DNA from: Blasia pusilla
Lineage: Eukaryota
Direction of reading: 5' to 3'
DNA length: 64,000 nt
Assembly: GCA_050084515.1 (NCBI GenBank)
Contig: CM114271.1
Coordinates: 2,294,001 to 2,358,000 of the forward strand
Numbering within the stretch: position 1 is the first letter of the stretch; the number at the start of each line of letters is the position of its first letter. This document shows, one piece after another, positions 2,161 through 31,974 of the stretch. The notes below the pieces were generated by a model. It saw nothing but the letters and a program-made list of their open reading frames with translations, searched no databases and had not been told where the DNA came from. The position numbers were made by a program, and so were the translations under genes.

Positions 2161-3329
2161 GGGAGGGGGGACTTCCTCTGTTGAGTACGATGACGACTGG
2201 GCTCGCTGTCTCCAGCTGGGAAGGACACCGATGCAATCTGTGCTCTGGACTTATGCATCCTCTCGTCCCTCTGACCCCCGCCCGCGCGTGGTACGCATCC
2301 TCCTCTGGTTTGGCAGGGTTGACCTGGGATTAACTCGGGATGCCTGTCGCTTCACTTAACTTGGAAGACACGGTAATTGCGCAAGCACCGGCTAAACTAA
2401 CGAGTTTCCGCAGGTAACCGGTAAATTTTGACCGGTTTGGGGCCTCTCCGAAGAAGGGGAAGAAATTCACAAGTGTGCGGCCAAAAGTTATTAAGAAGGT
2501 GTAAGAGAGATAGGTGGAAAAAACACACCTTGAGATGATGTATTGTAAATCTAGAAGTAGAAAGGAAATGATTAAAGTGGTGTAGAGTAGTTAGTAGTAA
2601 GTGAGTTTGAAAAGGGATAAAACATCATGTGCACTTAGAAAGTTATGGATGGTATATTTCAGGTGATATTGGGGAAAATGTTGACATGGATGACCTACAA
2701 GTGAAGAGTGTTGTAATAGAAAATGACTTTGGAGTAACCTTAGTAGTCATTCTAGTTTGAAAGCAAAATGCTGAATGGAATTTTGTGGACAGCCTAAATG
2801 TTTGGAGTGTTGTGTAATGTATGAATATTACCTTAGATGGATATATTCATTGCAGGCATGGACAATGATACTGAAGTGAGTTTGAATGAACGTGACATGT
2901 GCTTGGGGCAGGGGTAAGTGCAAAATTTTTAGTGGAGTTATAATGGTGAGTAGATGAATGCTTTGAAGACTATTTGTGTTGTATGTGTGGCTGTCATAGG
3001 TTGCGGTGAAGAAGAAATAGATTTTTGGGTGGATTTTAAAAACAGATATCATGTTATTTTTGGAATACATAATGGAAGGAACAATAAAGCATGAAATAGT
3101 AAGTTGGTTTACATAGAACTGAAGTGAGTGAAAAGTAGGCAGATCAATAGATAAAGATGAAATAGGAGATATACATGCTTATAAAGTATAGAGTACTTGT
3201 AGAGGTCTGCTCATACATAGAAAGTACTCTAATAAATTATATTAGTCGTATACCAACACAAGAATAAAAGTTCTTACAAAGTTATAGTGGGATAGAAGTA
3301 TTGTCTATCGAAAAGCAATAGCATTGCTT

Positions 3330-3843
3330 TGTCACGTCTTTTAGGATAGATCGGTGAGATCTAATAGAACGCCTTCATGAGTAGTGGAGGACACGCCTAG
3401 TAGGTCAAGGGTGACCTGTTGAGGCCCTTGGAAACCTGAGATAGCAGGTTTCCCCTTCGTTTCGGCTCATTTGGAGCCATATTGAGGAACTTACTATTTT
3501 AGGTAAGTACCATTTTGAGTATATGATCGACTTACTATTTTTGGTAAGTGGCCCTTGACTTCCTACATCAGGTCAAGAGCCAAGGAGGTGACTTGGGAGC
3601 ATAGGTTACCATGGAGAGAGCTTGGGAGAAGGGAGGGGTATACCTCAAGGAGAGAGAGCTTGAGAGCTCATTCTCTCTTTGTTGAACCTCTTGGCATGAG
3701 GCGGCGGAGCTATGGTACCTTGCCTTGTGAGTGTAACCCAAGCCTCTCATTAGGAGAGTGGGTTTGGGTTGACATGAGAGAGAGTCCACACCTTTGAGAG
3801 CTATGGTGTGAGATGGTGGAGAGAGAGATTGGATCTTACTTTA
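3330..3843 (+). repeat. E1 repeat A1 (514 bp)
   Basis: Direct repeat of 11155-11668, about 15 substitutions by eye. TATA-like GTATAC at about 3638-3643. Confidence 0.95.
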
Positions 3844-3858
3844 CAAAGAGAGAATGAG
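3843..3858 (+). promoter_or_regulatory. E1 putative self-priming site at the PBS position
   Basis: ACAAAGAGAGAATGAG is the exact reverse complement of 3667-3682 (CTCATTCTCTCTTTGT) inside repeat A. No TGG-starting tRNA PBS is present. Confidence 0.7.
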
Positions 3859-5435
3859 AGAATGAGAGAGTGAGAGAGCTTCATGGGGGAGCTCGCTCGT
3901 CACTCGCTTTTTTTGCAGGTTGGGGACCGTGTTCCCCGTTCAGCGGCTCATGGGAGTGCTCACCGGAGCAAGGGCTGGTTTCATTATTCTTTGCATTTGC
4001 CGATTTTTCGTGTGGAAGAGTGGCGCGCGGAAGCGCTGCCCAATTTCTGATAGGGATTGAGTATGGGGACAGGTTGCCCCATGCTGGTGCTCTCGAGAGC
4101 ACCATGTAGCTTGCTGATTTGTATTTTTACAGATGTTACATTTTGTTGGGAGAAATCAGCGGAGCGCTGCGAATTTTTTGTGTAGGAGAAAGAGACATTG
4201 GGCTTTACGACAGTCCCGTCAGTTTTACTGAAATTTTTGATTCTAAATATTTTTGATGCTGGCAAGATCGTGAAATTTGTGCACGTTGTGCAAGAAAAAT
4301 AGTGCACAATTTGGAGTTGTCCATTGAGCAAAAAGTTATGGTCAATCTTGTAAAGCTGCCATTGCTAGGCGATTTTTAGGTTAAATCGTGCAAATCCTAA
4401 ATTCGCCACACTCCCAAATCGTCGCCATCATAGTCACCGTCAACGGTCGACGGTCAACCGTCACCGTCATCAGTCGGCCGTCACCATCAGCGGTCAACCG
4501 TCATTGTCAACGGTCAACCGTCCATTGTCCTCCCTTTGGGTGCCATTGCCGCCATTACGGAGTGGAGGGTCTTCCACGGCGTTCGTTGATTCCTTGACTT
4601 GCGTTGCCACCACGTACTTTGTTTTGGCCGCCACCGTCATCGCATTTCTTCATCAACCAATGAAGGAGATGACCTCCGGTTATGGTGTTTGAGTTTTGAT
4701 TTCATGCTGCTATGTTGTGATTGGTAGCCGCTCGGCGGACGATCGAGTATCGTGCCGTGACGCCGTGAGCCGTAAGCCGCAACGCCGCGCCGATTGCCCA
4801 CCGCCCGTGCCGCTCGTGGCCGCACCGCACCGTCTCAATCGCGGAGCCGCACCGTCATTGTGGAGCAGAGTGTGGGATTATTATTGATTGAGGAGGGTAT
4901 GCCGCCGAGTGCCGCATCCCACCATCGAGGGCCGTGCCGTTCGTAGCCGTTCCGTGCCGCCTGCAACGCCGCACCGTTCCGCTGGGACCGCATTATCTAT
5001 CGAGGAGTTTTGAGCAGCATCAGTATGGGAGGAGTATGACTTGCTGATTGGAGGAGTTGTCTCCACGATCGAGTTGGGGTCGAGATTCGCAGTTGTTGAG
5101 GAGCGACATCGACATGTGTTCAGGTTACCCATTCTGGTCCTTTACCCTGCACGTGTGAGGGATTCTGGGATTTATTTGGGGATATTGGGTGTGTGGATGC
5201 TGAGAGCATCATTTATATATGTGGTTTAGGGGACATAGACCTGTGTGGGATGTCCGGAGTGAAGGGTAGGTTGTCGATGAGATGATAGCCTGGTCGATTT
5301 GCCGCACCACGCCGCGTGTTGCCGCACGTTACACGTCTCGGGGAGAGAGAGTGTAGATCGAGTGCCGCATGTTTGGGATGAGTGATTGAGGGATTCCTCA
5401 CGAGGTTCAGAGTGATCAGGTGAGAGGGGCACGAG

Positions 5436-6153
5436 GGTCATCACGGAGTCCGTTCGGGACTTTGAGAGGCGAGGTGGTGAACCCGAGAGTAGCTCTAGAG
5501 GTTTTACGCGGAGTGGCGCGAGGTTCCGAGGGTCTCCACGTGAGGGACCACCTCGACCTCCTTCTGTGTCATCGTCAGACGAGGGGGAGGTTGTAGAGGA
5601 GTTTGTGAGCACATCGCCACACGTTGTGAGTGGTCCTACCAGTTGGGCATACGAGATGGACGACCGGGGTAGAGGACATCGTAGGTTTACAGGTGCAGTA
5701 GGCACGATTGAGTTGCACGATTTTATAGCAGAGTTTAGGAGTTGGTGCGACTCCCAACGTGCCAGGAACTCTAGAGAGTTCAACCCATTTACAGCATGGA
5801 ACGGTATGTTCCAACATTTAGAGGGGGCGCCCATGGACGATTACCATGAGTTCTCTCGGAGAAATGCATGTGAGATCGAGGCGTGGAGGCTCTACTATGA
5901 CCCACATTATGTGTCATGGACGGAGCCGTTCCCAGATGAGGAGGAGGAGTCAGGAGAGGCTACTGCCTCTTCTACTAGTGACGTTTTAGGAGGAGTCACT
6001 CGCACGGGAGCAATTGCACCGTCTAGTCGGGTTCGTCCCAGGTTCAACCCTGTGGTTGAGTTCTTTGCTGAGTTGAGGGCGAGCTACCAGGGGGTACGGA
6101 CGGAGAAGTTGTGGAGCATCCACGACTTCCAGAGGCGCCCGGGTGAGAGTGCC
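5436..6153 (+). pseudogene. E1 gag-like region, C-terminally deleted
   Basis: RRFTGAVGTIELHDFIAEFRSWCD...LEGAPMDDYHEF aligns with the E2 gag fragments RRYSGAVGTIELEDFM and LEGPPMDDYHEF. Assigned as gag from its position upstream of pol. Confidence 0.7.
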
Positions 6154-6439
6154 ATCACTTGGCCTAGTGATTTGATTGAGGGACATGTCCATGCAGAGGA
6201 TACTCCCGTTCCTGACATTTCTATGGAGAGGAGTGTTATGGTAGCTGCATCATTCCGTGGAGGAGAGGTGTGTGGGGCTCGGACCGAGGAGCTTCAACGA
6301 TTCCCCGATGAGCACGCAGGCACCATGGCATGGAGCGCGGCGTTTGCACAGGCGTGATGGGTCTGAGGAACCCGAGGTAGCAGGGAGTGCTACGATGACA
6401 CCCTTGGATACCACACCCATTGTGTGGTGTACCCTGGAG

Positions 6440-7360
6440 GAGGGTATTCGAGTGTTAGATCTCTTTGGAGGGATTAGCACCGGGTTAGGTGCTGTTTTGC
6501 AGGCATGAGTGAAGAAATCTGGCCAGCACTGTATGTGGAGAGTGATGATGTTGCAGGGCGCGTCTCACTACGACATGTGGCGCAATTACGCCCACGTTTT
6601 CCCGACTTATTATGCGTCCGCGTCTGAGGATACCGAGTTCCCTACCGAGGATATTTTTTGTTGGGGCGCAGGACTTAGAGCGGTAGGGACCATTGATTTG
6701 GTCATTTCCGGTTGGCCATGTTAGGGCCAATCGAGTCGGACGAGGCAAAGCGGCGGGTTGGCGACACTCGGTCCAGGTTGTTTTGGGAGATGTTGAGGGT
6801 CTTACGGCAGTTGCAAGAGCACCAGTCTCGTTCTCTAGCCTTCATTCTCGAGAATGTGCCGATCTTAGGAGACTCCAAGTCACGGGTCGTGACGAGTGCT
6901 CATCAGGTGCGTGCCTGGATCGGCCCAGCAGTGTTCTTGGATGCGGCGAGGGTAGGTTCTAGAGCCCATCGCCCGCGTCTATGGTGGACAAACTTGGTGC
7001 CCCATGCGTTGTTATGGAGGGCGTATGCGAGAGTGGAGCGCCCCTCCCCTTTGTTAGTGGATTCCATTCTGGATCCAGGTCGTCGATCACAGGCAGTGAG
7101 GCACGATGATCGACCACCGCTGATTGTGGTCAACAGGGTAGGCAGGTCGCGGGCAGCCTTGCCCACGTTTGTGAGTTTTCCCGCTTCCTATGCATACAAG
7201 GAGGCCGGTCCTGGCTTGGTTTGGGATGACCAGGTTCAGCGGTTGGTGGAGCCCAACGCCGACGAGAGAGAGCGAGCGATGGGATTTCCCACAGGAGTGA
7301 CGGCAGTACCATCAGTGTAAGAGGCATCACGACGCCATGTCTTGGGTCAGGCGATGGACT
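6440..7360 (+). pseudogene. E1 DNMT3-like C5 cytosine DNA methyltransferase domain (frameshifted)
   Basis: Motif I VLDLFGGISTG, motif IV DLVISGWPC (next codon TAG where E2 has Gln), motif VI FILENV, motif VIII AHRPRLWWTN, motifs IX/X ERERAMGFP...VLGQAMD. Confidence 0.9.
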
Positions 7361-7849
7361 GGCGCTTGACATGGATCCTCGGCTTGGGAGTGGTGAGCAA
7401 CGCGTCATATGAGATCGCGACATATCACAACGGTTGCGTTGGTGAGCCCCATGCCTACCGAGACGGTGGAGGCAGTGGCTGGGGGCGAGACCCGAGGAGA
7501 TCTACGCACCAGGGGAGATCGGGAGAGACACCCTTGGACTTCTTGGGATGTTTTGAAGGTACGCAAGGAGATGATAGCCACAGCATCGAGCGTGGTTTCG
7601 GGCACTGCACGTGGAGGAGATCAGAGTTTGCAGTTGGCTGCAGGAGAGCGGCCGAGTGTTGTTGTTCAAGAGGGGTTGCACCATAGCAACCACCGATACC
7701 GCGCCGGAGAGTCCCTCGTAGTCACGATGGAGACTTGGGAGCCGATATGGGCCCTAAGTTGACAGGGGAGGAGAGCGGCGCCGAATACATCGTTCCTCGA
7801 AGTTATAGGAGCGCTGCGTTTAGCATGGAGGATTTGGGTACGTTGAAGG

Positions 7850-9160
7850 GACCGGGGATCCGCATTGAGTTGTCGAGTGATATGCCGATCTTCCGACGAC
7901 CCTACAGGTCTGATGATATGGAGAGGGCTCTGATTCAGAGTAGGAGCCAGGACTTGGTCGGAGCAGGACTAGTGGAGATGTCGCATGGGGAGTATGCATC
8001 TGCCACTATCATGCCCGCCAAGAAGGATGTGCATGGCAACTGGACGGATAGGCGGATGTGTGGGGATTACCGACCTATCAATCGGCAAACGAAGTCCGAT
8101 AGGTATGCCATGCCCACCCCTGAGGAGATCTTTGATGCGATTGGTAACGCAAAGGTCTTGATTCATTGATTTCGAGCCGGATACCATCACCGCCTATCGA
8201 TTGGAGGACAGGCAGAAGACGGCATTTTGGGGCATCGATCCTCACGGGAAGGATTGTTTGTACCAGTGGTGGTTCTTACCATTTGGGTTAAAGAACGCCA
8301 CGGCTGAGTTTCAGAGGGTCATGGATAGGATCTTGGCTGGTCTGGATTTTGCTAGGTGTTATATTGATGACATTGTAGTCTTTAGCGCCACGGTTGAGGA
8401 GCATGAGCAACATCTAGAGGAGGTGTTTTGACGATTGCAATTACATGGGCTGAAGCTACATCCAGGCAAGTGCAAGTTCTTCTATGACCAGATTGAGTAC
8501 TTGGGTCATACGATATACCCAAGGGGGCCTTGGTGTTCAGAGCGAAGGAAGAGGCTATCTCACGCATTCCACGCCCTACAGATGTGAGCCGTGTTCGCGC
8601 ATTCATGGGATTGGCGAACTTCTATCGGCGATACGTCAAGGGATTCAGTTCGATTGCGAAGCCGCTGACCTTGCTGACCAAGGTGGATCACGAGTGGCAC
8701 TGGGGGAATGAGCAGGAGCGAGCATTTCGATTGCTCAGGGGATAGGTTGGCGTCCGCACCCATCTTGAGGAGACCGATCAGGGGGCGTCCTTTCCAGTTG
8801 CACACATATAGGAGCATGTTGGGGCTTGGAGCGGTGCTCACCCACCATGATGATGAGGGTAGAGAGTTCGTGGTGGCTTCCGCTAGCCGCTCGAACAACG
8901 CTGCAGAGGCGAAGTACAACTTGTATGAGGGTGAGTGCTTGGCTGCGGTGTGGGTTGTCGCGCATTTCAGGTGTTACTTATTCGGAAACCCCTTTACCAT
9001 CATCACTGATCATCAACCACTGAAGTGGTTGATGGAGTCCGACAAGCTTACAGGGAAGCTTGCGAGATGGGCTCTGTTGTTGCAGGAGTATGATTTTCAG
9101 GTGGTACATAGACCTGGGACGCTCAACCAGGATGCAGATGGGTTGAGTCGTAACCCATGC
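7850..9160 (+). pseudogene. E1 reverse transcriptase and RNase H (Ty3/Gypsy type, frameshifted)
   Basis: RMCGDYRPIN, KTAFW, LPFGLKNA, CYIDDIVV, FMGLANFYRRYV; RNaseH GLGAVL, YEGECLA, IITDHQPLKWL, LARWALLLQEYDF, NQDADGLSR. Confidence 0.95.
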
Positions 9161-9529
9161 CTGAGTCAGCGAGATGCGACTGGAGCTCGATGGCATGGAG
9201 AGAGTGATGAGTAGTCGGTGCCAGGATAGCACGCGTCAGCCTATTTAGGCATGTTGGCTATGGAGAGCCAGAGTGTGGAGACTTCGATGGCGAGGTCTAG
9301 TGGAGAGTCCTTGGATCCCGAGGCCAGTGAGGACACGACAAGTGGCCGACATATTCATGATGATGGAGTATTCTTAGAGTACCTTCGTACTGGCAGCCTT
9401 GCAAGCACCATGGATACTAGAGAGCGGGATCGGATCCTACAGCGGGCCAGACGGTTCCGTTGGGAGGGGACACATATTTTGAGGGTTTGGGAGGATGGCA
9501 GAGTACGCTTAGTGCCGCATCCTTCACAG

Positions 9530-10600
9530 AGAGCACGACTAGTGCAGCATGCCCACAAGGAGTTGGGTCACTTTGGGGTGAAGCGGACGTATAGCTTGCT
9601 CCACATTCAGTATTGGTGGCGAGGCATGCAGAATGACGTTCAGCAATTTGTTGCCAGGTGCATGGTGTGTGATCGGGTCCGAGCATCGTTCAATGCTCCG
9701 ACTCCACAGTTGCATCCATTACCGATCATGGGCTTAGGGTATAGATGGATTTTGGATTTTGCAGGACCTTTGCCCTTGACGGAGCGTCACAGTCGTTATG
9801 TGTTGGTGATGGTCGAGCACTTCTCAAAGTGGATCGAGTTGGTTGCATTGCGACAAAGCGAGTGAGGGAGTAGCTTATGCCTTCCTTGACAGAGTCTTTG
9901 AGTCATTATGGCGCACCGGCGGAGTGTGTTGAGACCAGGGTACCGAAGTTTCGCGGTGAGTTCCAGGCCTTGTGTGATCGGGGGGCGATTCGACCACCGC
10001 CACGACGCGAGATCATCCTGAGGCGGATGGATTAGCGGAGATAGTTGTGCAGACGGTGAAGAGGGTTTACGCAAGTATGGCTTGCGAGAGAGGTCACCTA
10101 GGAGATTGGGACTTCAGTTGCCATGGTTGGCGATGGGATCTGATTCAGCGAGCACGCATCCTTAGCGTCTTTTTCACCGTATTTGCTACTTTATGGCGAG
10201 CCGATTTACTGCGGCCATTCGTCGAGATCTTTGGTGAGGTTTGAACCTTGATGACCAGATGTATGGGTGCGAGCATGTTCTCGAGGGCTGAGTTATTTCG
10301 AGAGTGATGCCCATGGCGTTCGAGAACTTGGCGATTGCACAAAGATCGGATACGTTGAGATATGCGACTATTCGTGGTGGTGGTTATCGACCAACTATCC
10401 GGAGGTTTCATCAAGGAGATTATGTCTACTTGCGCAGACGGCACCAACGGCGTTGGATGTGATCGCAGGCGCACTATCCGAGAGTGCGTGACATTTTGCC
10501 ATCGGGTGTTCTCTTCTTGTTGGAGGGACGCGATGGTATGGTATGGAAGGACCATGTGCGTAATTGTGCGCCATGTCACCTTCCTAACATTGATGGTACT
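9530..10600 (+). pseudogene. E1 DDE integrase (frameshifted)
   Basis: HHCC zinc finger (HAHKELGHFG...CMVCDR), core WILDFAGPLP and YVLVMVEHFSKW. The downstream core is broken by indels but is collinear with the E2 integrase. Confidence 0.9.
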
Positions 10601-10641
10601 GAAGAGATCCGAGCTTAGCGATAGTTCATGCGGGCTTGCGT

Positions 10642-10782
10642 TGTATGTTGTGTAGTTACGCCGTGTAGTGCGCCACGATGCTAGTCTATGATGGGTGTTC
10701 GAGAGGATGGCATATGGCATGTTTGACGCCACCTCTCACTAGGGTTCCTCAGGGACAATGGATGTGTCCCAGATGTACATAG
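10642..10782 (+). pseudogene. E1 PHD finger at the integrase C-terminus
   Basis: CMLC...MLVYDGCSRGWHMACLTPPLTRVPQGQWMCPRCT-stop; C4HC3 pattern with one Cys mutated to Tyr. Confidence 0.88.
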
Positions 10783-10993
10783 AGAAGGTAGTTCTACATT
10801 CCGACTTGTATCTGTGACATGGATGACAAGGAGGCGACTAACGATGGGGCCACATGAGCATCCGGTTTTCTTGCTCTTAGCGTCGAATCGAAAAAAAAGA
10901 AAGCAAATAATTCTATTATTATTAATAGAATTTTCTGCTTTCTTTTTTTACGATGTATGTCATGGTAGGTAGGGATAGATGGCTATCTGGAGT

Positions 10994-11024
10994 TAGAGGG
11001 ACCTAACCACCAGCTAGGGGGGCG
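10994..11024 (+). promoter_or_regulatory. E1 conserved polypurine-tract-like element immediately before B1
   Basis: TAGAGGGACCTAACCACCAGCTAGGGGGGCG, 29/31 identical to the E2 motif at 28477-28507 (-). Confidence 0.65.
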
Positions 11025-11796
11025 ATTGGAGATATTTTGGTACTTCTTGTCTCGTTGTTTGGATGCCATGAGTTAGCATGGGATCATGCGTGTTTGTGTG
11101 TGTGTTCGGTGACAGCGATGTATGTTGTGTAGCGATGTGTATGCGCACGACAGCTGTCACGTCTTTTAGGATAGATCGGTGAGATCTAATAGAGCACCTT
11201 CATGAGTAGTGGAGGACACGCCCAGTAGGTCGAGGGTGACCTGCTGAGGCCCTTAGAAACCTGAGATAGCAGGTTTCCCCTTCGTTACGGCTCATTTGGA
11301 GCCATATTGAGGAACTTACTATTTTAGGTAAGTACCATTTTGAGTATATGATCGACTTACTATTTTTGGTAAGTGGCCCTTGACCTCCTACATCAGGTGA
11401 AGAGCCAAGGAGGTGACTTGGGAGAATAGGTTACCATGAAGAGAGCTTGGGAGAAGGGAGGGGTATACCTCAAGGAGAGAGAGCTTGAGAGCTCATTCTC
11501 TCTTTGTTGAACCTCTTGGCATGAGGAGGCGGAGCTATGGTACCTTGCCTTGTGAGTGTAACCCAAGCCTCTCATTAGGAGAGTGGGTTTGGTTTGACAT
11601 GAGAGAGAGTGCACACCTTTGAGAGCTATGGTGTGAGATGGAGGAGAGAGAGATTGGATCTTACTTTAATTGGAGATATTTTGGTACTTCTTGTCTCATT
11701 GTTTGGATGCCATGAGTTAGCATGGGATCATGCGTGTTTGTGTGTGTGTTCGGTGACAGCGATGTATGTTGTGTAGCAATGTGTATGCGCACGACA
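11025..11796 (+). repeat. E1 right-end repeat block B1-GC-A2-B2
   Basis: B1 11025-11152 and B2 11669-11796 are both 128 bp with 2 differences seen. Junction CACGACA-GC-TGTCACG at 11146-11161. A2 is 11155-11668. Confidence 0.95.
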
Positions 11797-13944
11797 GCTT
11801 ACATAAAAATGCAACTCCCCTATGGTGTACTCTATGGAAACGTCTACTCTAAAGTGTAAATCTAGAGCAAGGATGATATCTTTGTTGCCTTCCGCTGTAA
11901 GTCTAGTTTACTTTGCACTAAGTCTCTTGCATCTTCCAAGAATTCATTGAAGTACTAATTTGCCTCTACAATATTGTGCTTGTATTGTGCACTCTAAAGT
12001 GTAGATTCTTTGGATTCATCTGCAAGTATCAAAATTTTGCTCTTGAGTACATCCACATCTTATCTTAGATGTGCATTCTGATCTTGCAAATAGTCGATTC
12101 TTCTCAAGAGTCGTTGGTAAACCTACAGTGTGATGTTGGAAGCTGGAGTATGCTCTGAAGTAGATGGTGCAACAGGAGGTGGATGTAGAGGTTGAATTGC
12201 TGAAGTTGTCCTCTCGTTGTATGGCGGGTGATGTGTCGAGAGCCTTATCCGAACCTGGGAGTAGAAAGAAATTGAAGTGAGTCAAATCTGAAATTGAAGT
12301 GAGGTAAAGCAGGAATAATGAAATGGAAGAATGTAGACAAATAATTACATTGATATTGGAAACAAAAAATTATAAATAGAGTACATTGTGTGGGAAGTAA
12401 AATGTCTTGAAGAACATATCTTATTGCATGGAAGAAAATGGAACTATACATATGTTTGGATAGGTAAATGTAAGAAACAGTAGACAAGAAATGATCCATC
12501 AGACTTGAAAGTAGAAAATGTCATTGAGTGATGAAACAGAGGCAAAATTACAAATATAAGTAGGCATTGTATGCTTGAGTAGAAGTGTCCAATTGAGGTA
12601 GTGTTTCCAAAGAACAAGCAATTTATATGTTCAACTACATAAGTTGCTTAAGAAAATTTTGGAAATGTTGAAACTATTGATAGAGAGTGAAGAACACATG
12701 TTGCAAGTATTCTTATGGGCACACATTCAAAATCACAGTAAAGTTGGAAAATTGTTCATTGGTTGTACCACCTAAGAAAGTAAGCAAGGTATGTAGTTAG
12801 TTGGAGCAATGAATAACAAAGCTTGGAAACAAGAAGTGAATGAAATGCATACATTGCAAGATACAAGAAAGTAACTTACCAAAGTGATAAACTATGCGCA
12901 CTTTCTCTTCCCTAGAGAGCTTGCACTTGCGCTAGGTTGGAAAGTGTAGAGGTCAATAATGATATCAGGTAATGTGACCTCACTTTTGACATCTTGAAAG
13001 TCTGGGAGAATGGGAACTATGTGTGGCTCATCAGTCTGCTAGGCATTGAACTCACGGAACTCTCCATTTGAACAAGTTAACTTCATCTTGGAGATGAGAT
13101 GGCTTCCTTTGGTGCTAGTCAAGTCAATCAGCATAGAAATGGGCAAGTGAAATCCATGATGAAGCGTGTGTAATTGATCAAGTTTAATGCCAACGGAGGC
13201 TATATTGAACAGTCTATTCCCCTAAGAGCATGTTAGGGATGTTTCTTTGGCAAGTGTATCAAATGCCATTGGATAATATATGTGATGATAAAGGAAAAAA
13301 AAAGGACAATACATTCCCTTAAATTTTGGCCTATGGATTGCTCAAGTAATCTAAATAATTTTATGAAAAATTAAAGTTCTACTCTTTTTATCTATGACAT
13401 ATGTATTGCATATACAATCCAGTTCTATAAAGTTTTATTGGAACAATGGATGGTCTCCTTCCTTCATTTATTACCTATGCAATACACATAAAATCTAAGT
13501 AGTTCTAAGAAAAAGTAGACCATCTATTCTATTCCTTTGGGATTTACATATTGCATGCGCAATTTATGATCAATCTTACCAATAATTATGTGTCAAGTAG
13601 ATGATCAACTTCAAAGGAAATTATGTATGGCAGATTGAGAATTCCACTTCTCTTTAAAATTATTGTGTCTTTTGTTTAAAAAAGATGTATCATATGATTT
13701 GGTGCAAACATATGGTTTAAATTGTTCATGTAATATTTGAGAAAAATTTACCTTATGAAAAAATAACCACAGACCATCCGAGAGTATATGGAGAAAAAAA
13801 TTGATGACCAAAATTGAATGGGAAATATTTTTTAAGTTATTTTTTACAAAAAAATTAAAAATAGATGATGGTGAAAATGACATATAATACCTTAAAAAAT
13901 TCGATTAGATAGATCGATTGACTAATGGATAGGGCCATGCTAGT

Positions 13945-14075
13945 TGTCATGCACACACATTGCTCTCACCGAATACACACAAAATACCATACTAACTCAT
14001 GTCATCTAAACATCAAGACGATGGAGTATCAAAATATCTTTAATAAATCAAGATCTCTCACAATAGGCACATAAA

Positions 14076-14115
<40 letters not shown>

Positions 14116-14555
14116 AACCAAACCTACTCTCCTAATGAGAGGCTTGGATTACTCACAAGGTAAGGAGGACCATAAATCCACTGCCTCATACCAAAAGGTT
14201 CAACAAAGAGAGAATGAACTCCAAAGCTCTTTCTCCTTGGGTATACTCCCTTCTCTCTCCTAAGCTTTTTCCATGGTAACCTATGTTTGCATGTCACCTC
14301 CTTAGCTCTTGACCTATGGTAGGAGTCAAGAGAAAACTCCTAGAGTGAAAAGTCAAGTATGCTTATATTGACAATTTACTTGAAATAGTAAGTTTCTATA
14401 TATAGCTATAAATGAGCCCAAAAAAATGGAAAATCTGCTCTCTCTCAAGTTACCCGAGACCGTAATAAGTCATCCTCGACCTCCTCAGGCTATCTTCCAA
14501 TATCCTAGAAGGCACTATACGATAAACTCGTCAATCTATCCTAAAAGATGTGACA
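13945..14555 (-). mobile_element. Degenerate solo A+B unit related to E1
   Basis: Reverse-complement similarity to E1 B then A (e.g. actctcctaatgagaggcttgg, ggttcaacaaagagagaatga, ctatcctaaaagatgtgaca). Flanks are TAGT and TAGC (3/4 TSD). Confidence 0.85.
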
Positions 14556-15811: not shown

Positions 15812-16426
15812 TGTCACATCTGAGTAGTCGATAGGCCGAGATCTATCGTGGATAGGGCGTAGGAGCCAGCGGACTATCTTGAGTGCAACTTTGTCTCACG
15901 GTGTCGGATGAGGTTGAGGATAGGTCCATTGTGTCAGGAATGTCGTTCCGCTAACTTTCATGTTGAGGTCTTTCACAATCGGATGACTTGTTGACCAGGT
16001 CACCCTCCCATGGTAACTTGTGCGCGCAGGTTACCAAGGGGAGGGTTATTTTTAGGGGAAGAGCCTTTTGGCTCTTCCCAACCCTATATAAGAGAGGAAG
16101 GTGGCTTTCCTAAGCCATCTTTCTCATGTTGGGCTGTTGGAGCACCTCTCTTGTATGTGTGTGAGATAGGACTTAGGTGCTAGCGTCCGGATTCTTTGAT
16201 AGATAGTGGACGAGGGCGCGCGCTCCTATGCGCGCCTCCCACCGTCCGCATGTCGCCGCCCGCCGCCTGCCCATCCACGACCGTCGCCGTTATGTGATCT
16301 CCATGTATATGTATGAGTTGATTTTTGTACATGTGTGGATCAACGTGTGTGTGAGGAAGATCGGTGTTGTGTGGTGTAGATGTGACCAGCAATGTATGTG
16401 GTGTAGCGATATGTATGCGCACGACA
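15812..16426 (+). mobile_element. Solo A+B unit of a third related family
   Basis: Starts TGTCACATC and ends GTGTAGCGATATGTATGCGCACGACA, nearly identical to the E1 B end. Perfect 4-bp TSD TCTT (15808-15811, 16427-16430). TATATAA at 16085-16091. Confidence 0.88.
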
Positions 16427-25473: not shown

Positions 25474-27895
25474 ATATTGTAACATTCTGTTTTCTTCTTC
25501 TTTGTAACAAACTTACGTCTGGGATTTCTTGGTTCGACAGCCTTGAAAGGGGCTTTATAGAGAACTTGTGCAATAGAATTTTGACCAGGAGCGAGCTCTG
25601 TTACTACTGGGATAGCTGATTGAAACAGTGCGCTCTGTGTGCCTCACGAACATTAGCTGTAGTGTTGGTAGATCCATATTGTTCAGTTTCTTGTAGCCCC
25701 AATGCCATATTTCGAAAGTCATGCTTGCTTAATTGTCAACGACCTCAGTGAAGGGCAGGATGGTGGCTATCTCCTGTATTAAATTTGTGTAACACAGCTG
25801 ATGGTTGGCCAAGGTGGCTTGAAAACAACCCATATGGTTTTCAATGCATGAAAAATCTCTTCAGAAGGTCGGCCAAAATTCCAAAAAGGACTTAGACTCG
25901 TCTAGGTCCTAGTTAAAGTTAAAGTTTCATTTCGAAGGCTCATTGAGTGCACTAATGGGGCAGATTGTGATATTAGCAAGAGGGGATATCATCTTGATTT
26001 GTCATAAGTTTAGGATTATCGTCTCCAAAGAATTTGGTTAAAATGCCCCTTCAGGAAAGCTAGTCCTTTGCTTCGTGATGGTAACTTAGTAAAGTTCACC
26101 TCTCTACTCCAAGTCGAGTGTTGTGTAACACTCGTAGTTGATTCCTTCGATATGAAGGAGCCTGAAAAACCATTTTTTAGACTTTTGGAAAACCATAATT
26201 TGCCTTTCCGTGGAGTTTTCCATCACAATAATGGATGTTAATACTCTAAAATGTCAATTGTTTTCTTCATTCAAATTTAATTGTATAGAATGGGAAAACA
26301 AATGAATAATGCTTTCTTTCAGGAAATTTTCCCATCTTCTAGACTACTTTTAGTACTTCATACGTGTAATCTTCAATGGCATTTGCCATCCAGATGTTTG
26401 TAGTAGACTATAGAAGTTTACTTCTTTTCCCTTCATAGAAAAATATTTTGAAGATAGGGAAAAAGTAATATATTCCCTATAACTTGTCTTGTCTTTTCTT
26501 TTCTTCAGCCAAATGGAATGAGGTTGAGGGAAAGTGAATGAATGAAGGTTTCCCCCCCCTTAATAATTCGATGAAACTTTTTCCCACATGGAACTTTTCT
26601 ACATTATTACTTGACTAGTAAATTTTTGGAAAAATGGAGAAAGATATAATATTGGGATTCAGCTGGAATAGGAGGATAAACTAAATCTTGGAATATTTTA
26701 GAAAATCTACATTAGGGCTCTTACAAGTTCACCATTTTTCTCTTCTTTCCATGTAGCCTTTCTGCGCCCCCTACAAAGAAGTTAGATATTTATTTTCGTC
26801 CTAACCCTCTCGGAGGGCTGCACATTGGATTGAGAATAAGGAGACTGGAAGATAAAATTTTCTCCTAATGAATGATTGGATTTGGGATGTTACATATTCC
26901 CATTCAACACGATTTCATTTCATCAATGATCTTGTAACACATGTCACCAAACAAAAACACTATATTGGTAGTAGTTTTGCCAAATTTGAATGCCTCCAAA
27001 GGGCCCATTTAATAACCATTTTTCAAATCCAAGTTTTTCATATGCTTTTATGGGTACTTAAAGTCCAGCACCTAAAACGATGCTTGCATTCCTAACGGTC
27101 CCAACTGTCCAATGGACCTCGTGCGAATCCCAAACCGAGATCCAACTAAATGAGTCGCAGGTTGGAATCCAATACGGACCTCCAAAATCCGCTCTATTGG
27201 ACTTGATTCGGATTTCGAATCCCAACGCTAAAATCCCGATGAATTTTGTACCCTTGGATCGTCCCGCGGCGCCCCAAAGTGAAGTTCGAGTCCCAAGCAC
27301 TCTTGGAGACCTTCCCTCTTATTAATATGTCTGGGGTTCTTCGTCCTCCCACCATCTTTGGGCCACTCTTTTTGGTCCTCAACCTAAATCTCCATACAGT
27401 CATTTCTAAGAACTTTCTCAACCTATGCTTATGTGTTTGCTAACATCTTAATGCGTTGGAACTAGATTCACATAAGCTTTCCAACGCCATCTTATTTGTC
27501 CCAAACACATCTTGGGACCAAAAGTTATGATCCAAAATACAGTCAAAACCCCAAACGCTAGTCACGTTCCAAATTTGGTTCTCACCTCTTTAGCAACCAC
27601 TCTTCCTAGACTCGACTCCTCTCAAGTCTTGGTTTACGTTTGGTTCAGGTTTCCTAGTTGCGACCATAAATGCATAAAACGCTAAACCTTGCTCGCTTCT
27701 CATCTCTTGTGTCTCTTGCGTCTCTTCTAAGAGATCACTCCAACGCGCAAATCATCCTAGCGTGAGCCTGCTAGAATTCTGATGTTCTGCTTGGTGCTCG
27801 TTTGGTTATGAGGGTCGCGACACCCAAGTTCCGCATCTTATCTCGATGGAAGTAAAGACACTAGAGGAAATCTTGGTTTTTATGCCTCTAATAAA

Positions 27896-28476
27896 TGTCG
27901 TGCGAATCCACATCGTCATACAACATACATTGCTGACATACCATACTCACATACATACATAACATAGACGAGAGCATCCACAAACACAAGTGTACCACAA
28001 CTGAAATCCGTGAAAGACCCACTGCCATAAAACACGTATAGAATCACATACAATCGAGCCAAACCCACTCCACGATGGGAGAATCTAGGTCGAAGCTTGG
28101 AAACACCATAGCCAAGAGCTCTACTCACTACCAAGGCTAACTCCCAAGCAATGAGGCTCAACTCAAAGAACTCGATTTGTTCTTTGAGTGCACTCCACCT
28201 ATATCCTCCAACCTAAGAGCGGGCCCTCTTTGGAAAAGTCACCTCAACCGAGTAACCTCCAACCCTATGTATGAAATCGCATCTCTACCTAGACACTGCG
28301 GCCCTACATAAGGTATGGCCTCTACTAGCACACTATACTCTACGACATAATCCGTATGGTCATGACAGCTGTCGTGCGAATCCACATCGTCATATAACAT
28401 ACATCGCTGACATACCATACTCACATACATACATAACATAGACGAGAGCATCCACAAACACAAGTGTACCACAACT
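27896..28476 (-). repeat. E2 terminal repeat block B1-GC-A2-B2
   Basis: 27896-28002 repeats at 28370-28476 (107 bp). 28003-28367 repeats at 37297-37660. Junction GACA-GC-TGTC at 28364-28373. Confidence 0.95.
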
Positions 28477-28648
28477 CGCCCCCCTAACTGGCGGTTAGGT
28501 CCCTCTAGCTTCCAGGTATCCCTATACATCTACTACATGCTATACACCTTCTTGGGTGCACGAATCAAAAGGCCGGGTGCTAGGTTGCCCCATCGTTAGT
28601 CGCACATCTATAATCCATATCATGCAAAGATCAAGTCATCTACCCCTC

Positions 28649-28789
28649 CTAAGTACATCGAGGACAAACCCACCTTCCAGTAGGAACAACATCCATACAT
28701 GGAGTCAAACACATCATGTGCCAACCCCTAGAACACCGATCACACACCAACATACGGGTTGCGTTACCAGCAGACCCACACAACATGCA
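28649..28789 (-). pseudogene. E2 PHD finger
   Basis: CMLCGSAGNATRMLVCDRCSRGWHMMCLTPCMDVVPTGRWVCPRCT-stop; intact C4HC3. Confidence 0.92.
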
Positions 28790-28829
28790 CCTCAAGCTAG
28801 CACGTATCATGGCTAAGCTTGGGTCAACA

Positions 28830-29900
28830 GTACCATCCACATTTGGAAGATGGCGCACAATTACGCACATGGTCCTTCCAAACAACTCCATCACGACCCT
28901 CCAACATGAGAACTCCAGAAGCTAACACCTCGCGCACTCGTAAAATAGTGCGCCCTGCTGTCACATCCAACGTTTTCGGTGCAATCTGCTGCAAAAAGAC
29001 ATATTCCCCCACATGGAACCTACGAATCGATGGTCGATAACCTCCACCCCGAATAGTTGCATACCACAACGTATCCCTGTGTTGAGCAATGGCAAGATTC
29101 TCAAAGGCTGTTGGCATAACTCTCCGAAAGAGCTCTGCCCGCTGAGAACACACTCTCATCCACATCTCTGGGTCATCAAGGTTCACCACCTCACTAGACC
29201 CCCGACGAATTGCTGTTGGCAAGTATGGATCTCGACCGTATAACAGAAAATAAGATGAGAAGGAAGCCAAGGATGCTTGGCGACTGAACCTATACCCCAT
29301 GGCTAACCATGGCAACTGAATATCCCAGTCTCCAAGATGCCCCTTTTGTAGGCCATACTTACGCAATGCCCTCTTCACCGTCTGAACCACACGCTCAGCC
29401 AAACCATCCGCCTCTGGATGATCTCAAGACGTGGTCCGATGATCAATCAACGCCTTGTCACACAAGACCTGAAACTCACCCTAAAACTATGTACCCTGGT
29501 CGGTCAGTACTTCAACCGATGCACCAAAATGACTAGCACTCTATCAAGAAACGCATACGCCGTTCCCTCACTTGCCTTGTCCGGTAATGCCACCAACTCA
29601 ATCCACTTGGAGAAGTGCTCCACCATCACCAACACATATCGATGATATCGTACAGTCAACGGTAACGGTCCCGCAAAGTCCACACTCCAACGGTAATCCA
29701 ACCCCATAATAGGCAAGGGGTGTAATTGTGGTGTAGGGGCATTGAATGATGCCCTCACCCGGTCACAAACCATACAACATGACACCAACTGCTGCACCTG
29801 AGTATGCATGCAACGCCACCAATGCTGACCAAGGAGTAAGCTATATGTACGCTTTACCCCAAAATGTCTCAACTCCTCATGGGCATGTCGCACAATGCGC
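28830..29900 (-). pseudogene. E2 DDE integrase
   Basis: HAHEELRHFG...CMVCDR, WSVDFAGPLP, YVLVMVEHFSKWIELVAL, TDQG, AERVVQTVKRAL, YFLLYGRDP. Confidence 0.92.
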
Positions 29901-30289
29901 TCTCTCTGAGCCAAATGCGGCACTACTCGTACTCTACCATCCTCCCACACACGGAGAATATGTGTTCCCTCCAATCGATACCTCTTAGCACGTTGAAGAA
30001 CACGGTCTCGCTCCTTGGCACTCACTATGCCTGGCACCCTACTGGTCCGTAGGAACTCCAACACCAACGCATCATCATGAATATCACGCTGATCCGTACC
30101 ACAATCTCCAACCTTAGGATCCGAAGGCTAGCCATCTACCCTCTGACTAGAGTAAGATATCATGTGGTCCTCCATACTAGAGTCCATCCCTAACCAACAT
30201 AAAAAGGCGAATGCATGCCAACCTGGCACCATCTCCTCATCATCCTCGCCATGCCATCTAGCCCAAGTTGTATCCTCTTGGCTAGTACA

Positions 30290-31520: not shown

Positions 31521-31974
31521 TAGCCAAATCAATCCGTATACCGGGTCCAACCAGAGAACCCAACTCCTTCATGCTAAAGGCAAAACAACTCCTATAAGCA
31601 CGTAGGAACTGTGTCAAGCGTCGTTTCTCACCTCCCGTAAGCTTGGGCCTAATTAATGGCTCCCAAGTCTCCTCCACTGGCACTTTGCCATTGGCTGCTA
31701 CGCAACCCCCTCACAAGATGGTACACCCTTAGCTACACCATCAGCTGAGCAAATAACTCCTCCACCAGCATGAGCAACCAACTCCACATGCCCAGCCATT
31801 ACATCCCATTTACTCCAAGGATGCAAAATACTACTCTCCTCGCCCCCAACCGATGCCTCTATCGTCCCGGTAGCCATCGAGCTTATTACAAGGGGTGGAA
31901 GACCCACAGACATAGTCCGAAGTCGACGCTGCTCGGCCATACCAAGACTCAAAATCCAAGTCAAACAATTCAGG

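Follow-up and report, generated by a model that had tools for sequence, protein, structure and literature searches.

Split direct repeats in Gypsy-DNMT3 retrotransposons of Blasia pusilla and a possible route to a permuted integrated copy

A 64,000-nucleotide stretch of Blasia pusilla DNA (contig CM114271.1, positions 2,294,001 to 2,358,000; the window) contains a retroelement, E1, that raises a simple question: how can an element with a DDE integrase come to lie between a single repeat, A, on its left and a block of the order B-A-B on its right?

Organization of the window elements

Repeat search, alignment, self-BLAST and direct reading agree on the split layout A1-interior-B1-GC-A2-B2 that a first-pass annotation had assigned to E1, and its termini, TGTC...GACA, and 4-bp TSD, GCTT, were confirmed by direct reading. 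The features of E1, all on the plus strand, are as follows.

3326-3329, plus: left TSD, GCTT (direct reading; identical four bases at 11797-11800)
3330-3843, plus: A1, 514 bp, first bases TGTCACG (repeat search, pairwise alignment, self-BLAST)
3843-3858, plus: putative self-priming PBS ACAAAGAGAGAATGAG at the A1 end (16-nt exact complement to 3667-3682)
5416-6357, plus: degenerate Gag-like frame (tblastn with L063 ORF1)
6416-7386, plus: C5 cytosine DNA methyltransferase region, frameshifted (tblastn, Pfam, ORF motifs)
7732-10779, plus: RT, RNase H, integrase (H2C2 zinc finger, DDE core) and C-terminal region, split among several frames
11025-11152, plus: B1, 128 bp, 3' end ...GCGCACGACA (repeat search, self-BLAST)
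11149-11158, plus: GACA-GC-TGTC, a perfect 10-bp palindrome spanning the B1/A2 joint, where integrase is proposed to cut
11153-11154, plus: GC spacer separating B1 from A2 (direct reading)
11155-11668, plus: A2, 514 bp (repeat search, pairwise alignment, self-BLAST)
11669-11796, plus: B2, 128 bp, adjoining the last base of A2, final bases GACA (direct reading, self-BLAST)
11797-11800, plus: right TSD, GCTT (direct reading)

The two A copies of E1 are 97.1% identical over 514 bp (pairwise alignment, self-BLAST) and the two B copies 98.4% identical over 128 bp; repeat search, self-BLAST and direct reading found no copy of B adjoining A1. Self-comparison of the window by BLAST returned the split layout for a second element, E2, as well, and a solo unit related to E1 lies between the two.

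27892-37664, minus: E2, of the same lineage and layout as E1, TSDs included
37664-37661 and 27895-27892, minus: TSD, TTTA
37660-37296, minus: A1
37296-37286, minus: putative PBS
32853-32032, minus: methyltransferase
31424-30474, minus: RT/RNase H
30127-29504 and 29423-28824, minus: integrase
28852-28652, minus: PHD
28485-28479, minus: polypurine tract
28476-28370, minus: B1
28369-28368, minus: GC spacer
28367-28002, minus: A2
28001-27896, minus: B2
13945-14555, minus: solo A-B unit, 76% identical to the A of E1, TGTC...GACA, flanks GCTA/ACTA (three of four bases agree)

No BLAST match links A of E1 to A of E2, so the common layout was not copied from one rearrangement; the claim that it recurs in E2 with a different A thus stands.

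The gene order of the lineage, gag-PR-C5 DNA methyltransferase-RT-RNaseH-H2C2/DDE integrase-PHD, is that of Ty3/Gypsy. Pfam identified RT, RNase H, integrase H2C2 and rve domains in the coding part and no tyrosine recombinase domain there, in line with the first-pass annotation, from which two further domains were absent: the C5 DNA methyltransferase, in the protease/RT interval, and a PHD finger 3' of the integrase. Both E1 and E2 are disrupted by frameshifts and stops. In E1, the region 7732-10779 was delimited by Pfam (RVT_1, RT_RNaseH, RT_RNaseH_2, Integrase_H2C2) and by tblastn to ORF2 of L063, a metagenome relative with an intact integrase of the DDE type (Pfam rve, H2C2). The Pfam match of E1 to PF00145 is weak, but methyltransferase motif stretches are discernible in its ORFs, and the region is 46% identical to that of L063 over 235 aa. 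Residues 67-257 of L063 ORF1 align to 5653-6135 of E1 (tblastn), while residues 258-928 were unmatched in E1, where only ~280 bp precede the methyltransferase match, and tblastn found no protease-like stretch; E1 would seem to be without the gag C-terminus and protease. The methyltransferases of L063 and a second relative, L064, are only 45-46% identical to that of E2, and the best named relatives of the enzyme, in keeping with a bryophyte host, are those of Sphagnum, Calypogeia, Marchantia and Riccia. In its RT-IN, L063 is 44-46% identical to chlorophyte RT-IN-PHD proteins and 47% identical to a K. nitens protein bearing PF00145, which makes E1 and E2 relatives of the KnitGypsy-Dnmt3 family. 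Judged from these sequences, E1 and E2 are old broken copies in the streptophyte Gypsy-DNMT3 lineage of Ty3/Gypsy retrotransposons.

Ends, joints and priming signals across copies

The full layout recurs in L013, L041, L073 and L075 and the joint in L004, L063 and L064; the layout is therefore a property of the lineage, as had been proposed, and extends to metagenome relatives as distant as L063 and L064. Left ends were scored in E1, E2 and 19 further sites, the distinct ones among 23 loci; in all 21, host flank lies directly 5' of TGTCA, and in none is B upstream of A, as it would be in a conventional A+B left LTR. All four complete copies have perfect 4-bp TSDs (E1 GCTT, E2 TTTA, L013 TCTC, L041 AAGG). 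At the right end, 10 cases have B-nn-A, compared with 11 metagenome contigs with distinct flanks that run from polypurine tract through B into flank, without A2-B2. The metagenome contigs as a whole were assembled from short reads of a repeat present in many copies, and some may be mosaics. Five of the 11 include the left end, four with perfect 4-bp TSDs (TGTG, TACA, TGTT, TACA) and one matching in three of four bases, so that TSDs are perfect in 8 of 9 copies having both ends. If the 11 contigs without A2-B2 are real, many insertions would be A-interior-B.

The B1-A2 joint is highly conserved. Of the 10 distinct right ends, nine have GACAnnTGTC intact (nn is GC in five, AT in two, GT in one and AC in one), the tenth (L034/L036) having a 27-nt microhomology deletion at the B-nn-A joint, and CA.GACA..TGTCA.G is invariant in nine aligned joints. 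Integrase-type ends, TGTC... and ...GACA, stand back to back inside B-nn-A, where they form the palindrome GACA-nn-TGTC. The A|B joint varies among copies: it is precise in E1, E2 and L075 and differs by one base in L041 and L073. In L013 it holds 17 nt of filler and the final 3 nt of the polypurine tract, and in L046/L047 it holds 9 nt from the primer-binding site and 5 nt more. An E1-family joint in DNA contigs from runs X1 and X3 reads A end, 9 nt of PBS, B start (3852 to 11669), but is weak, with one contig per run and a shorter side of just 23 nt. Aberrant two-LTR circle joints of retroviruses carry primer-site and polypurine remnants.

The candidate priming signals lie beside A1 and B1. 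In E1, the polypurine tract AGGGGGG followed by CG (11016-11024, plus strand) abuts B1 with its final base; a block ...GGACCTAACC.CCAG.TAGGGGGGCG in this region is common to E1 and E2, and a CTA-preceded G-run ends 2-4 nt 5' of B in all nine loci with the joint, including L063 and L064. Plus-strand priming is probably set up at this conserved tract, directly 5' of B. A1 of E1 has a TATA-like sequence, TATAC, at 3639-3643; the complementary stretch 3667-3682, 28 nt downstream, forms a closing helix with the A1/interior border in MFE and centroid folds from a hand-picked start. E2-type elements have another sequence at the PBS position (ACTCAAAGAAC...), which is also complementary to their own A (up to 17 nt, compared with 16 nt in E1), indicating that it is the pairing, rather than the sequence, that is conserved. 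Of 25 rows compared by a script that disallowed mismatches, 13 have an exact complement of 10-17 nt that begins at the last base of A and has its partner in A 26-31 nt past the TATA, and three have one of 11-13 nt slightly farther along; in the other nine, which are old copies, the exact complement is only 6-8 nt. RNA read starts showed no pile-up within A. The complementarity suggests that minus-strand priming is set up directly 3' of A, by Tf1-like self-priming.

A possible origin of the permuted copy

How, then, might this arrangement arise? On balance, and with some reserve, we favor a cut by integrase at the internal palindrome, leaving a permuted integrated copy of the Gypsy-DNMT3 element; the transcription start, cDNA ends and cleavage site are placed as we infer them from the DNA. 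The repeat made by reverse transcription would be a B-nn-A LTR, different from the repeat at the insertion borders, and the linear cDNA would be [B-nn-A]-interior-[B-nn-A]. Integrase would cut one internal palindrome after each CA, generating both processed ends at once, and these would be inserted at a target cut staggered by 4 bp. The actual tips of the cDNA (A end = U5, B start = U3) would be joined together, either earlier, in a two-LTR circle, or later, by host end joining, and A|B would be the end-joined U5|U3. With the cut internal and the tips joined, the integrated copy would be circularly permuted with respect to the cDNA: A-interior-B-nn-A|B is a circular permutation of a normal provirus, and one palindrome would be left intact for the next round. 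Published accounts describe palindromic LTR-LTR joints as cleavable by retroviral integrases (PMC1905944, PMC1180852, PMC4372172). The unusual integration route suggested at first pass is supported as an interpretation. A two-LTR circle, being symmetric, ought to open at one palindrome as readily as at the other, so that mirrored copies, A-B-nn-A-interior-B, would be expected too; there are none, against six with a left end and a right B-nn-A (E1, E2, L013, L041, L004, L034), and the model therefore requires a bias or fast secondary loss, which is a guess.

In tyrosine-recombinase elements the split-repeat layout is thought to serve end repair. Reverse transcription itself could build a linear A-interior-B-nn-A-B, with template switches at the B1-A2 joint rebuilding the ends, as proposed for PAT/Ngaro, and the DDE integrase would then act on ordinary blunt termini, with neither circle nor internal cut. 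The layout is described for tyrosine-recombinase elements (PMC5890265), TGTC...GACA termini and 4-bp TSDs fit a normal integrase substrate, and the lack of mirrored copies (0 versus 6) follows naturally. We nevertheless regard this as unlikely: the polypurine tract precedes B1, not A2, and the primer site is 3' of A1, with nothing primer-like after B, so that neither end of such a molecule coincides with a priming site. In addition, the primer-site and polypurine remnants at A2|B2 in some copies indicate a joint of cDNA tips, not a copied stretch.

Somewhat more doubtful is the possibility that integration usually yields A-interior-B, whether the substrate is a one-LTR circle or a linear cDNA in which both palindromes are cut, with full copies rarer and the sole replicating form. 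The 11 contigs lacking A2-B2, with four perfect TSDs among the five with a left end, speak in its favor. However, L033 (A-interior-B) and L073 (B1-AT-A2-B2) have a common flank, with 0.37% divergence over 4 kb, and differ in layout, which points to a B1 x B2 deletion or to assembly collapse of the B-A-B loop as the source of the short form. E1 and E2, both taken from a genome assembly, have the full layout, and a short copy, being without 3' R, could presumably not be copied further.

Split direct repeats are given as a hallmark of tyrosine-recombinase retrotransposons (PMC5890265), and such a recombinase, supplied in trans by host DIRS-like elements, might insert circular cDNA with the Gypsy integrase uninvolved. 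This is very improbable, given that the intact L063 lacks both a Phage_integrase domain and a spare ORF of at least 170 aa, that its own integrase is intact and many relatives retain RT-IN-PHD architectures, and that TSDs are perfect in 8 of 9 copies, with TG...CA-type termini. Finally, E1 might be a conventional element, with an A+B LTR at each end, that was rearranged once or misassembled; in favor of this is the zero depth of the E1 flanks in the DNA runs examined, which lent the locus no independent support. This reading is rejected, because the layout recurs in E2 (with its unrelated A) and the joint or full layout in the seven loci listed above, a conventional left LTR is found at none of the 21 left ends, and the layout is published for K. 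nitens (PMC5890265).

Comparison with known systems

The architecture had been taken to be undescribed, and on this point, which affects novelty alone, the earlier reading must be corrected: Klebsormidium KnitGypsy-Dnmt3 was reported to combine DIRS-like repeats with Gypsy domains, its repeats being "the same as that of a DIRS retrotransposon" (de Mendoza et al. 2018, PMC5890265, Fig. 4c legend), and a "streptophyte Gypsy-DNMT3" is named again in bioRxiv 10.64898/2026.05.21.726589. Like E1 and E2, KnitGypsy-Dnmt3 encodes the Gypsy domains and, within the polyprotein, a C5 DNA methyltransferase, and its repeats are alike by the published description (PMC5890265). That description, in which the split layout was printed once before, gives no TSD, palindrome, priming sites, joint analysis, mechanism or explanation of origin, whereas E1 and E2 are described here with TSD, joint and priming sites; we found no published mechanism for a split-repeat Gypsy layout. 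What is new is the polypurine tract before B1, the self-priming complementarity, the invariant GACA-nn-TGTC palindrome and the variable A2|B2 joint.

PAT, Ngaro and TOC1, of the DIRS order, share the A1-interior-B1-A2-B2 layout, and in them as in E1/E2 the integrated copy has the order expected if a circle containing two B-A units had been opened at one of its B|A joints. In contrast to these elements, E1 and E2 have a DDE integrase and no tyrosine recombinase, a 4-bp TSD, TGTC...GACA termini, Ty3/Gypsy-type RT and RNase H, and a methyltransferase of the C5 and not the Dam-like kind. Tf1/sushi elements (the Tcn1 clade in plants) are described as likewise having no tRNA-type primer site and a site directly past U5 that is complementary near the predicted transcript 5' end (Neumann et al. 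2019, PMC6317226), but they have ordinary LTRs and a chromodomain, whereas in E1 and E2 the LTR is permuted and the integrase is followed by a PHD finger. Gypsy-7a_cRei of Chlamydomonas reinhardtii, likewise a Gypsy element encoding a PHD finger, is active; it has no reported methyltransferase and an asymmetry of 8 bp, compared with 107-128 bp in the window elements (Craig et al. 2022, PMC9940879, Fig. 6A); its relation to the split layout is only a lead.

A parallel to the favored internal cut is cleavage of retroviral two-LTR circles, in which, as described, a DDE enzyme cuts and inserts back-to-back inverted ends a few bases apart (PMC1905944, PMC1180852, PMC4372172). In retroviruses such cleavage lies off the main route and acts on a dead-end product, whereas the palindrome of E1 and E2, with its 2-bp spacer, is built in and seemingly a regular substrate. 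Comparable back-to-back inverted ends occur in the abutted-end circle joints of bacterial insertion sequences of the IS3/IS30 type.

Split repeats in E1, E2 and related loci

The two Gypsy-type elements of the window, E1 (plus strand) and E2 (minus strand), are bounded by a long repeat (copies A1 and A2) and a short repeat (copies B1 and B2) that are divided unequally between the two ends. For E1, the first-pass annotation had proposed the order A1-interior-B1-GC-A2-B2 with TGTC...GACA termini and a GCTT target-site duplication (TSD), and this arrangement was reproduced by repeat search, alignment, self-BLAST and direct reading of the sequence.

Repeat features of E1 and E2, with the evidence for E1
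3326-3329, left TSD of E1, GCTT (direct reading)
3330-3843, plus strand, A1 of E1 (repeat search, alignment, self-BLAST of the window)
11025-11152, plus strand, B1 of E1 (repeat search, self-BLAST, direct reading)
11153-11154, GC spacer of E1 (direct reading)
11155-11668, plus strand, A2 of E1 (repeat search, alignment, self-BLAST)
11669-11796, plus strand, B2 of E1 (self-BLAST, direct reading)
11797-11800, right TSD of E1, GCTT (direct reading)
37660-37296, minus strand, A1 of E2, preceded by TSD TTTA and followed by the interior
28476-28370, minus strand, B1 of E2, followed by the spacer GC
28367-28002, minus strand, A2 of E2
28001-27896, minus strand, B2 of E2, followed by TSD TTTA

E1 begins with TGTC and ends with GACA; its A copies are 97.1% identical over 514 bp and its B copies 98.4% identical over 128 bp. 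The further claim that E2 has the same layout with a different A repeat also held: its TSD is TTTA, and BLAST gave no match between the A repeats of the two elements while self-BLAST of the window shows their pol regions to be ~74-75% identical, indicating that the layout is not one copied rearrangement.

To collect further copies, we used an alignment of 16 methyltransferase sequences of the kind these elements encode to scan metagenome contigs; 204 stretches matched, 85 of them encode a relative, and 80 loci (L-numbers) were kept. The A and B units taken from five elements served as queries against all 80 loci and the window, and the 41 loci of at least 7 kb were self-compared. The complete split layout with both flanks is present in L013 (TSD TCTC) and L041 (TSD AAGG); L073 and L075 contain the right end B-nn-A-B, where nn is the 2-bp spacer, and in L004, L063, L064 and L034/L036 the unit B-nn-A reaches the contig end. 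Left ends occur in 23 loci, which represent 19 distinct sites when shared flanks (L040/41, L042/43, L050/51, L033/72) are collapsed, or 21 sites with E1 and E2. At every one of these 21 sites host flank abuts TGTCA and B is not upstream, and a conventional A+B left LTR was found at none of the 80 metagenome loci and nowhere in the window. The two complete colinear border LTRs of Ty3/Gypsy elements are therefore absent: the left border is A alone (21/21), and the right border is B-nn-A-B in all six cases where the sequence suffices. The Ty3/Gypsy trait of TG...CA termini with a 4-5 bp TSD is present, as TGTC...GACA with 4-bp TSDs that are perfect in 4/4 full copies, in line with the earlier annotation. 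L059 and L066, in which B lacks a preceding polypurine tract, were left out of these counts, and from L046/L047, whose right part is rearranged (half of A and an inverted A piece), only the local A|B joint was used. The split layout is thus confirmed as a property of the lineage and not a one-off.

Other readings of the borders were ruled out. A conventional LTR made of A+B is excluded by the absence of B at every left end and by a polypurine tract that does not precede A2; an A...A element with B2 as target DNA, by a left flank unlike the sequence preceding B1; and a TSD that includes the GC, by E2, which has the same GC but the TSD TTTA.

Eleven contigs with distinct flanks show a short form (A-interior-B), in which the polypurine tract and B run directly into flank without A2-B2. 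Both ends are present in five of them, with perfect 4-bp TSDs in four and 3/4 matching bases in the other. We set these contigs aside as evidence on the integration product, because L033 (short form) has the same flank as L073 (full right end) and yet a different layout, so that a mosaic or a collapsed loop is possible. Their common flanks, compared 1 kb away from the element, diverge by 0.37% over 4 kb, and the pair reflects either a B1 x B2 deletion in one lineage or short-read mosaics of paralogues that skip the B-A-B loop. The interiors (5780-13482 of L033 and 5-7718 of L073) differ by 8.4%, with 578 transitions versus 67 transversions (ratio 8.6); for what looks like the same site, this would mean either very fast methylation-driven C-to-T decay inside the element or, again, paralogue mosaics.

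The window also holds further pieces of the repeats. A solo A-B unit at 13945-14555 (minus strand) is 76% identical to A of E1, has the ends TGTC...GACA and is flanked by GCTA/ACTA (3/4 bases matching); it may have arisen by A1 x A2 recombination or by direct insertion of an A|B piece. B-like ends at 16312-16426 (plus strand) and 54289-54416 (minus strand), which finish in ...GCGCACGACA followed by flank, match B of E1 and one another at ~80-85% identity; neither a polypurine tract nor a coding part lies nearby. Against a window background that is AT-rich (29-40% GC), positions 1-2330 are GC-rich (55%) and show strong negative GC skew, both strands carrying long open frames that overlap, and 56839-58308 is a tandem array with nested periods of ~39, 68 and 110 bp and units 78-95% identical by self-BLAST. 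GC skew over each element is strong and strand-specific, the sense strand being G-rich: positive over E1 and negative over E2.

Coding content, expression and relatives

E1 and E2 are both disrupted by frameshifts and stops, and their pieces match the Pfam domains RVT_1, RT_RNaseH, RT_RNaseH_2, Integrase_H2C2 and rve. The full coding plan is seen in an intact relative, the 9317-bp metagenome locus L063, whose two ORFs are parted by one in-frame stop.

Coding features of L063 and methyltransferase regions
976-5082 of L063, ORF1: gag with two CCHC knuckles, aspartic protease stretch, methyltransferase
5086-8226 of L063, ORF2: RT, RNase H, H2C2, rve, PHD
3700-5082 of L063, methyltransferase region
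6416-7386 of the window, methyltransferase region of E1
32853-32032 of the window, minus strand, methyltransferase region of E2

Pfam matches in L063 are Asp_protease_2 (under its cut-off), RVT_1, RT_RNaseH, RT_RNaseH_2, Integrase_H2C2 and rve. L063 thus has the Ty3/Gypsy polyprotein order of protease, RT, RNase H and integrase with H2C2 and a DDE (rve) core, and pieces of the same domains lie in E1 and E2, which substantiates the Gypsy RT-RNaseH-DDE integrase content first read from the sequence. The reported lack of a recognisable tyrosine recombinase stands as well. Neither L063 ORF has a match to PF00589 (Phage_integrase) at E <= 0.01, and the locus has no further ORF of at least 170 aa, leaving no room for a tyrosine recombinase; the scanned pieces of E1 and E2 likewise gave no Pfam match to one. 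Residues 258-928 of L063 ORF1 have no matching stretch in E1; the gag end and the protease therefore appear to be lost from this copy.

The first-pass annotation left two domains unmentioned. PF00145, a C5 cytosine methyltransferase, sits between protease and RT and matches L063 ORF1, E2 and, weakly, E1; its motifs (GWPCQG, ENVP) seem intact in L063 and partly so in E2. A PHD finger follows the integrase in E2 (28852-28652, minus strand) and in L063 ORF2 (residues 990-1034; Pfam E 4e-10, 3e-10), at the place where chromoviruses have a chromodomain, and is probably a chromatin reader for targeting. A lineage that carries its own DNA methyltransferase and such a reader bears on the relation between mobile elements and host silencing.

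We compared 3000-12100 with two runs of DNA contigs of 60-130 nt (X1, X3) and two of RNA raw reads (X22, X23). The flanks of E1 have zero depth in these runs, so that the E1 locus is known from the assembly alone; the element family is very abundant in the DNA runs. RNA reads of 95-99% likeness span the whole element, with the first mate mostly on the minus strand. Relatives of E1 are therefore transcribed, and with a conventional stranded library the transcripts would be sense. No pile-up of read starts or ends inside A is listed among the RNA reads. At 10884-10952, 67 bases are skipped, with CGAGA in their place, in RNA reads (26 of X22, 80 of X23) and in DNA contigs, indicating that E1 has an AT-rich insertion relative to the expressed copies; the gap does not speak for splicing. 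The B variant of 16312-16426 and 54289-54416 is present in X23 RNA reads (as a loose end before 11113), and a subfamily that has this variant is therefore expressed.

At E <= 0.001 the E2 methyltransferase has 135 relatives, the best named ones being from bryophytes (Sphagnum, Calypogeia, Marchantia, Riccia; 60-76% identity); among green lineages, the enzyme has relatives in bryophytes, Klebsormidium and Closterium. L063 ORF2 matches RT-IN-PHD proteins of Klebsormidium nitens and Closterium species (some of both with PF00145), of bryophytes and of the chlorophytes Haematococcus and Tetrabaena. Judging from these matches, the window probably comes from a bryophyte. The K. nitens protein KFL_009030040 (PF00145, RVT_1, rve) is 47% identical to it over 88% of its length in a pairwise comparison.

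The idea that the architecture was undescribed did not survive: in the accessible text of de Mendoza et al. 2018 (PMC5890265), the K. nitens family KnitGypsy-Dnmt3 is stated to combine a DIRS-like repeat arrangement with Gypsy domains. The main text of that paper contains no TSD or joint analysis of the family that we could find, and its supplements may bear on novelty. A 2026 preprint (bioRxiv 10.64898/2026.05.21.726589) names, in its accessible part, "streptophytes (Gypsy-DNMT3)", and the accessible text of the plant LTR survey of Neumann et al. 2019 (PMC6317226) contains neither the word "methyltransferase" nor "PHD". In the literature searched, we found no published account of how a DDE-integrase element acquires a split layout.

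Priming sites and the two repeat joints

A G-run block (CTAGGGGGG, then 2-4 bases) directly precedes B1 in 9/9 loci with the joint, among them L063 and L064, whose methyltransferases are only 45-46% identical to that of E2. Its place and look suggest a polypurine tract, which would lie before B and not before A2.

There is no tRNA-type primer site directly after A1. From the last base of A onward, the bases are the reverse complement of an A-internal stretch that starts 26-31 nt past TATA. In E1, 16 nt (3843-3858) pair with 3667-3682, and TATAC is at 3639; the complement is 10 nt long in E2 and up to 17 nt in L040, L041 and L048. An exact complement of at least 10 nt stands at the A/interior border in 13/25 rows of the comparison, and one of 11-13 nt slightly further on, in the same long duplex, in 3/25; the remaining 9/25, old copies for which the script disallowed mismatches, have only 6-8 nt. 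E1 and the E2 type use different primer-site sequences, so it is the pairing that is conserved and not the sequence. In Tf1-like self-priming, the transcript loops so that its 5' end pairs with a site adjoining U5; the A-internal stretch of the E1/E2 lineage, complementary to the site after A and placed at a start predicted from TATA, would allow the same arrangement. The MFE and centroid structures predicted for the 5' RNA both contain the closing helix, which follows partly from the chosen start point. Among plant elements, self-priming is described for Tcn1 and TAR in the accessible text of PMC6317226.

Judged by their sequence, the putative primer site after A1 and the putative polypurine tract before B1 bracket B-nn-A and not the border repeats. 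With these two sites, the repeat unit of reverse transcription would be B-nn-A, with the first base of B as the beginning of plus-strand DNA and the last base of A as that of minus-strand DNA.

Within the right end, the B1-A2 and A2|B2 joints differ in behaviour. The B1-A2 joint is a palindrome, GACA-nn-TGTC, that is intact in 9/10 distinct right ends (nn is GC in 5, AT in 2, GT in 1 and AC in 1), the exception being L034/L036, where it was lost via a 27-nt microhomology deletion. CA.GACA..TGTCA.G is invariant in the alignment of the nine intact joints, and each half of the palindrome equals one end of the integrated element; at the insertion borders nn is missing, since TGTC and GACA directly adjoin the TSDs. 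In contrast, the A|B joint is scarred. In E1, E2 and L075, A runs through its last base straight into the base that follows the polypurine tract, with one base different in L041 and L073; L013 has a 17-nt filler plus the last three bases of the polypurine tract, and L046/L047 has nine primer-site bases plus five more. A joint of the E1 family running from 3852 to 11669 (end of A, nine primer-site bases, start of B) occurs in short DNA contigs from two runs, each of a different study, although its support is weak, with one contig per run and 23 nt on the shorter side. Leftovers of both primers at the A|B joint are as expected of joined cDNA tips.

Proposed integration through an internal palindrome and comparison with known systems

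In the textbook account, integration of LTR retrotransposons and retroviruses proceeds from the tips of linear cDNA, and circles are dead-end products. In these elements, a different route may apply. Transcription would start at the primer-site complement within A1, and ordinary reverse transcription would give linear [B-nn-A]-interior-[B-nn-A]. Integrase would then cut one internal palindrome after CA on each strand, the cuts lying 2 nt apart, leaving both ends processed with a 2-nt 5' overhang, and would insert these ends with a 4-bp stagger. The real cDNA tips (end of A, start of B) would be ligated to each other, either in a two-LTR circle formed before integration or through end joining by the host after it. 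Opening of the unit next to the primer site would yield A-interior-B-nn-A|B, the order observed. HIV-1 and foamy virus integrases can cut such palindromes, according to the accessible text of PMC1905944, PMC1180852 and PMC4372172.

The out-of-register priming and integrase sites, together with the contrast between the joints, point to integration via an internal joint resembling a circle joint, to which we give roughly an even chance. The broader proposition, that a whole green-plant LTR lineage normally integrates by DDE-integrase cleavage of a built-in, circle-joint-like palindrome (in a two-LTR circle, or in linear cDNA with host joining of the tips), we hold more tentatively, a little short of evenly balanced. 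The main rival is that reverse transcription itself makes the whole permuted DNA, which would deliver the observed order at once; however, a joint with leftovers of both primers is not expected of a stretch copied faithfully from RNA.

One observation fits internal cleavage poorly. A symmetric circle should open at either palindrome, so that mirrored copies (A-B-nn-A-interior-B) are expected, and we found none versus six of the observed type in which the left end and the right B-nn-A are both visible (E1, E2, L013, L041, L004, L034). Our guess is that the left unit is cut first, having become double-stranded well ahead of the right; another guess is that mirrored copies collapse fast, by recombination between long A repeats only ~115-130 bp apart.

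If cleavage at the internal palindrome is the route, each insertion would be a circular permutation of the reverse-transcribed DNA, and the lineage would exemplify in nature the long-abandoned "circle junction" model for retroviral integration. It would also explain how a Gypsy element comes to have a layout hitherto tied to tyrosine recombinases. Because the offset of one B unit holds across a widespread plant and algal lineage, an alternative integration route becomes testable. In practice, LTR finders that assume two equal LTRs will miss or mis-annotate these elements in bryophyte and charophyte genomes.

By domain content and repeat layout, E1 and E2 fall in the known Gypsy-DNMT3 group; its unusual repeats have one earlier mention in print. 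E1, E2 and L063 share with KnitGypsy-Dnmt3 a C5 methyltransferase within the Gypsy polyprotein, and the E1/E2 lineage shares with it, as far as the accessible text of PMC5890265 describes the family, repeats arranged as in DIRS. What is new is the evidence that putative priming sites and integrase sites are offset from each other by one B unit, and that an invariant palindromic joint contrasts with a scarred A|B joint. The split direct repeats A1-interior-B1A2B2 are likewise those of the DIRS order (PAT/Ngaro-like). In contrast to L063, E1 and E2, however, the DIRS order has a tyrosine recombinase ORF, and it lacks the integrase-type TSD that the E1/E2 lineage shows as 4-bp duplications. Gypsy-7a_cRei of Chlamydomonas, a Gypsy element with a PHD finger and 86 new laboratory insertions (PMC9940879), has a left LTR shorter by 8 bp and may be a small-scale parallel to the offset. 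If the internal palindrome is indeed what integrase cuts, the layout would be convergent with that of tyrosine-recombinase elements, and the mechanism convergent with that of IS3/IS30-type bacterial elements.
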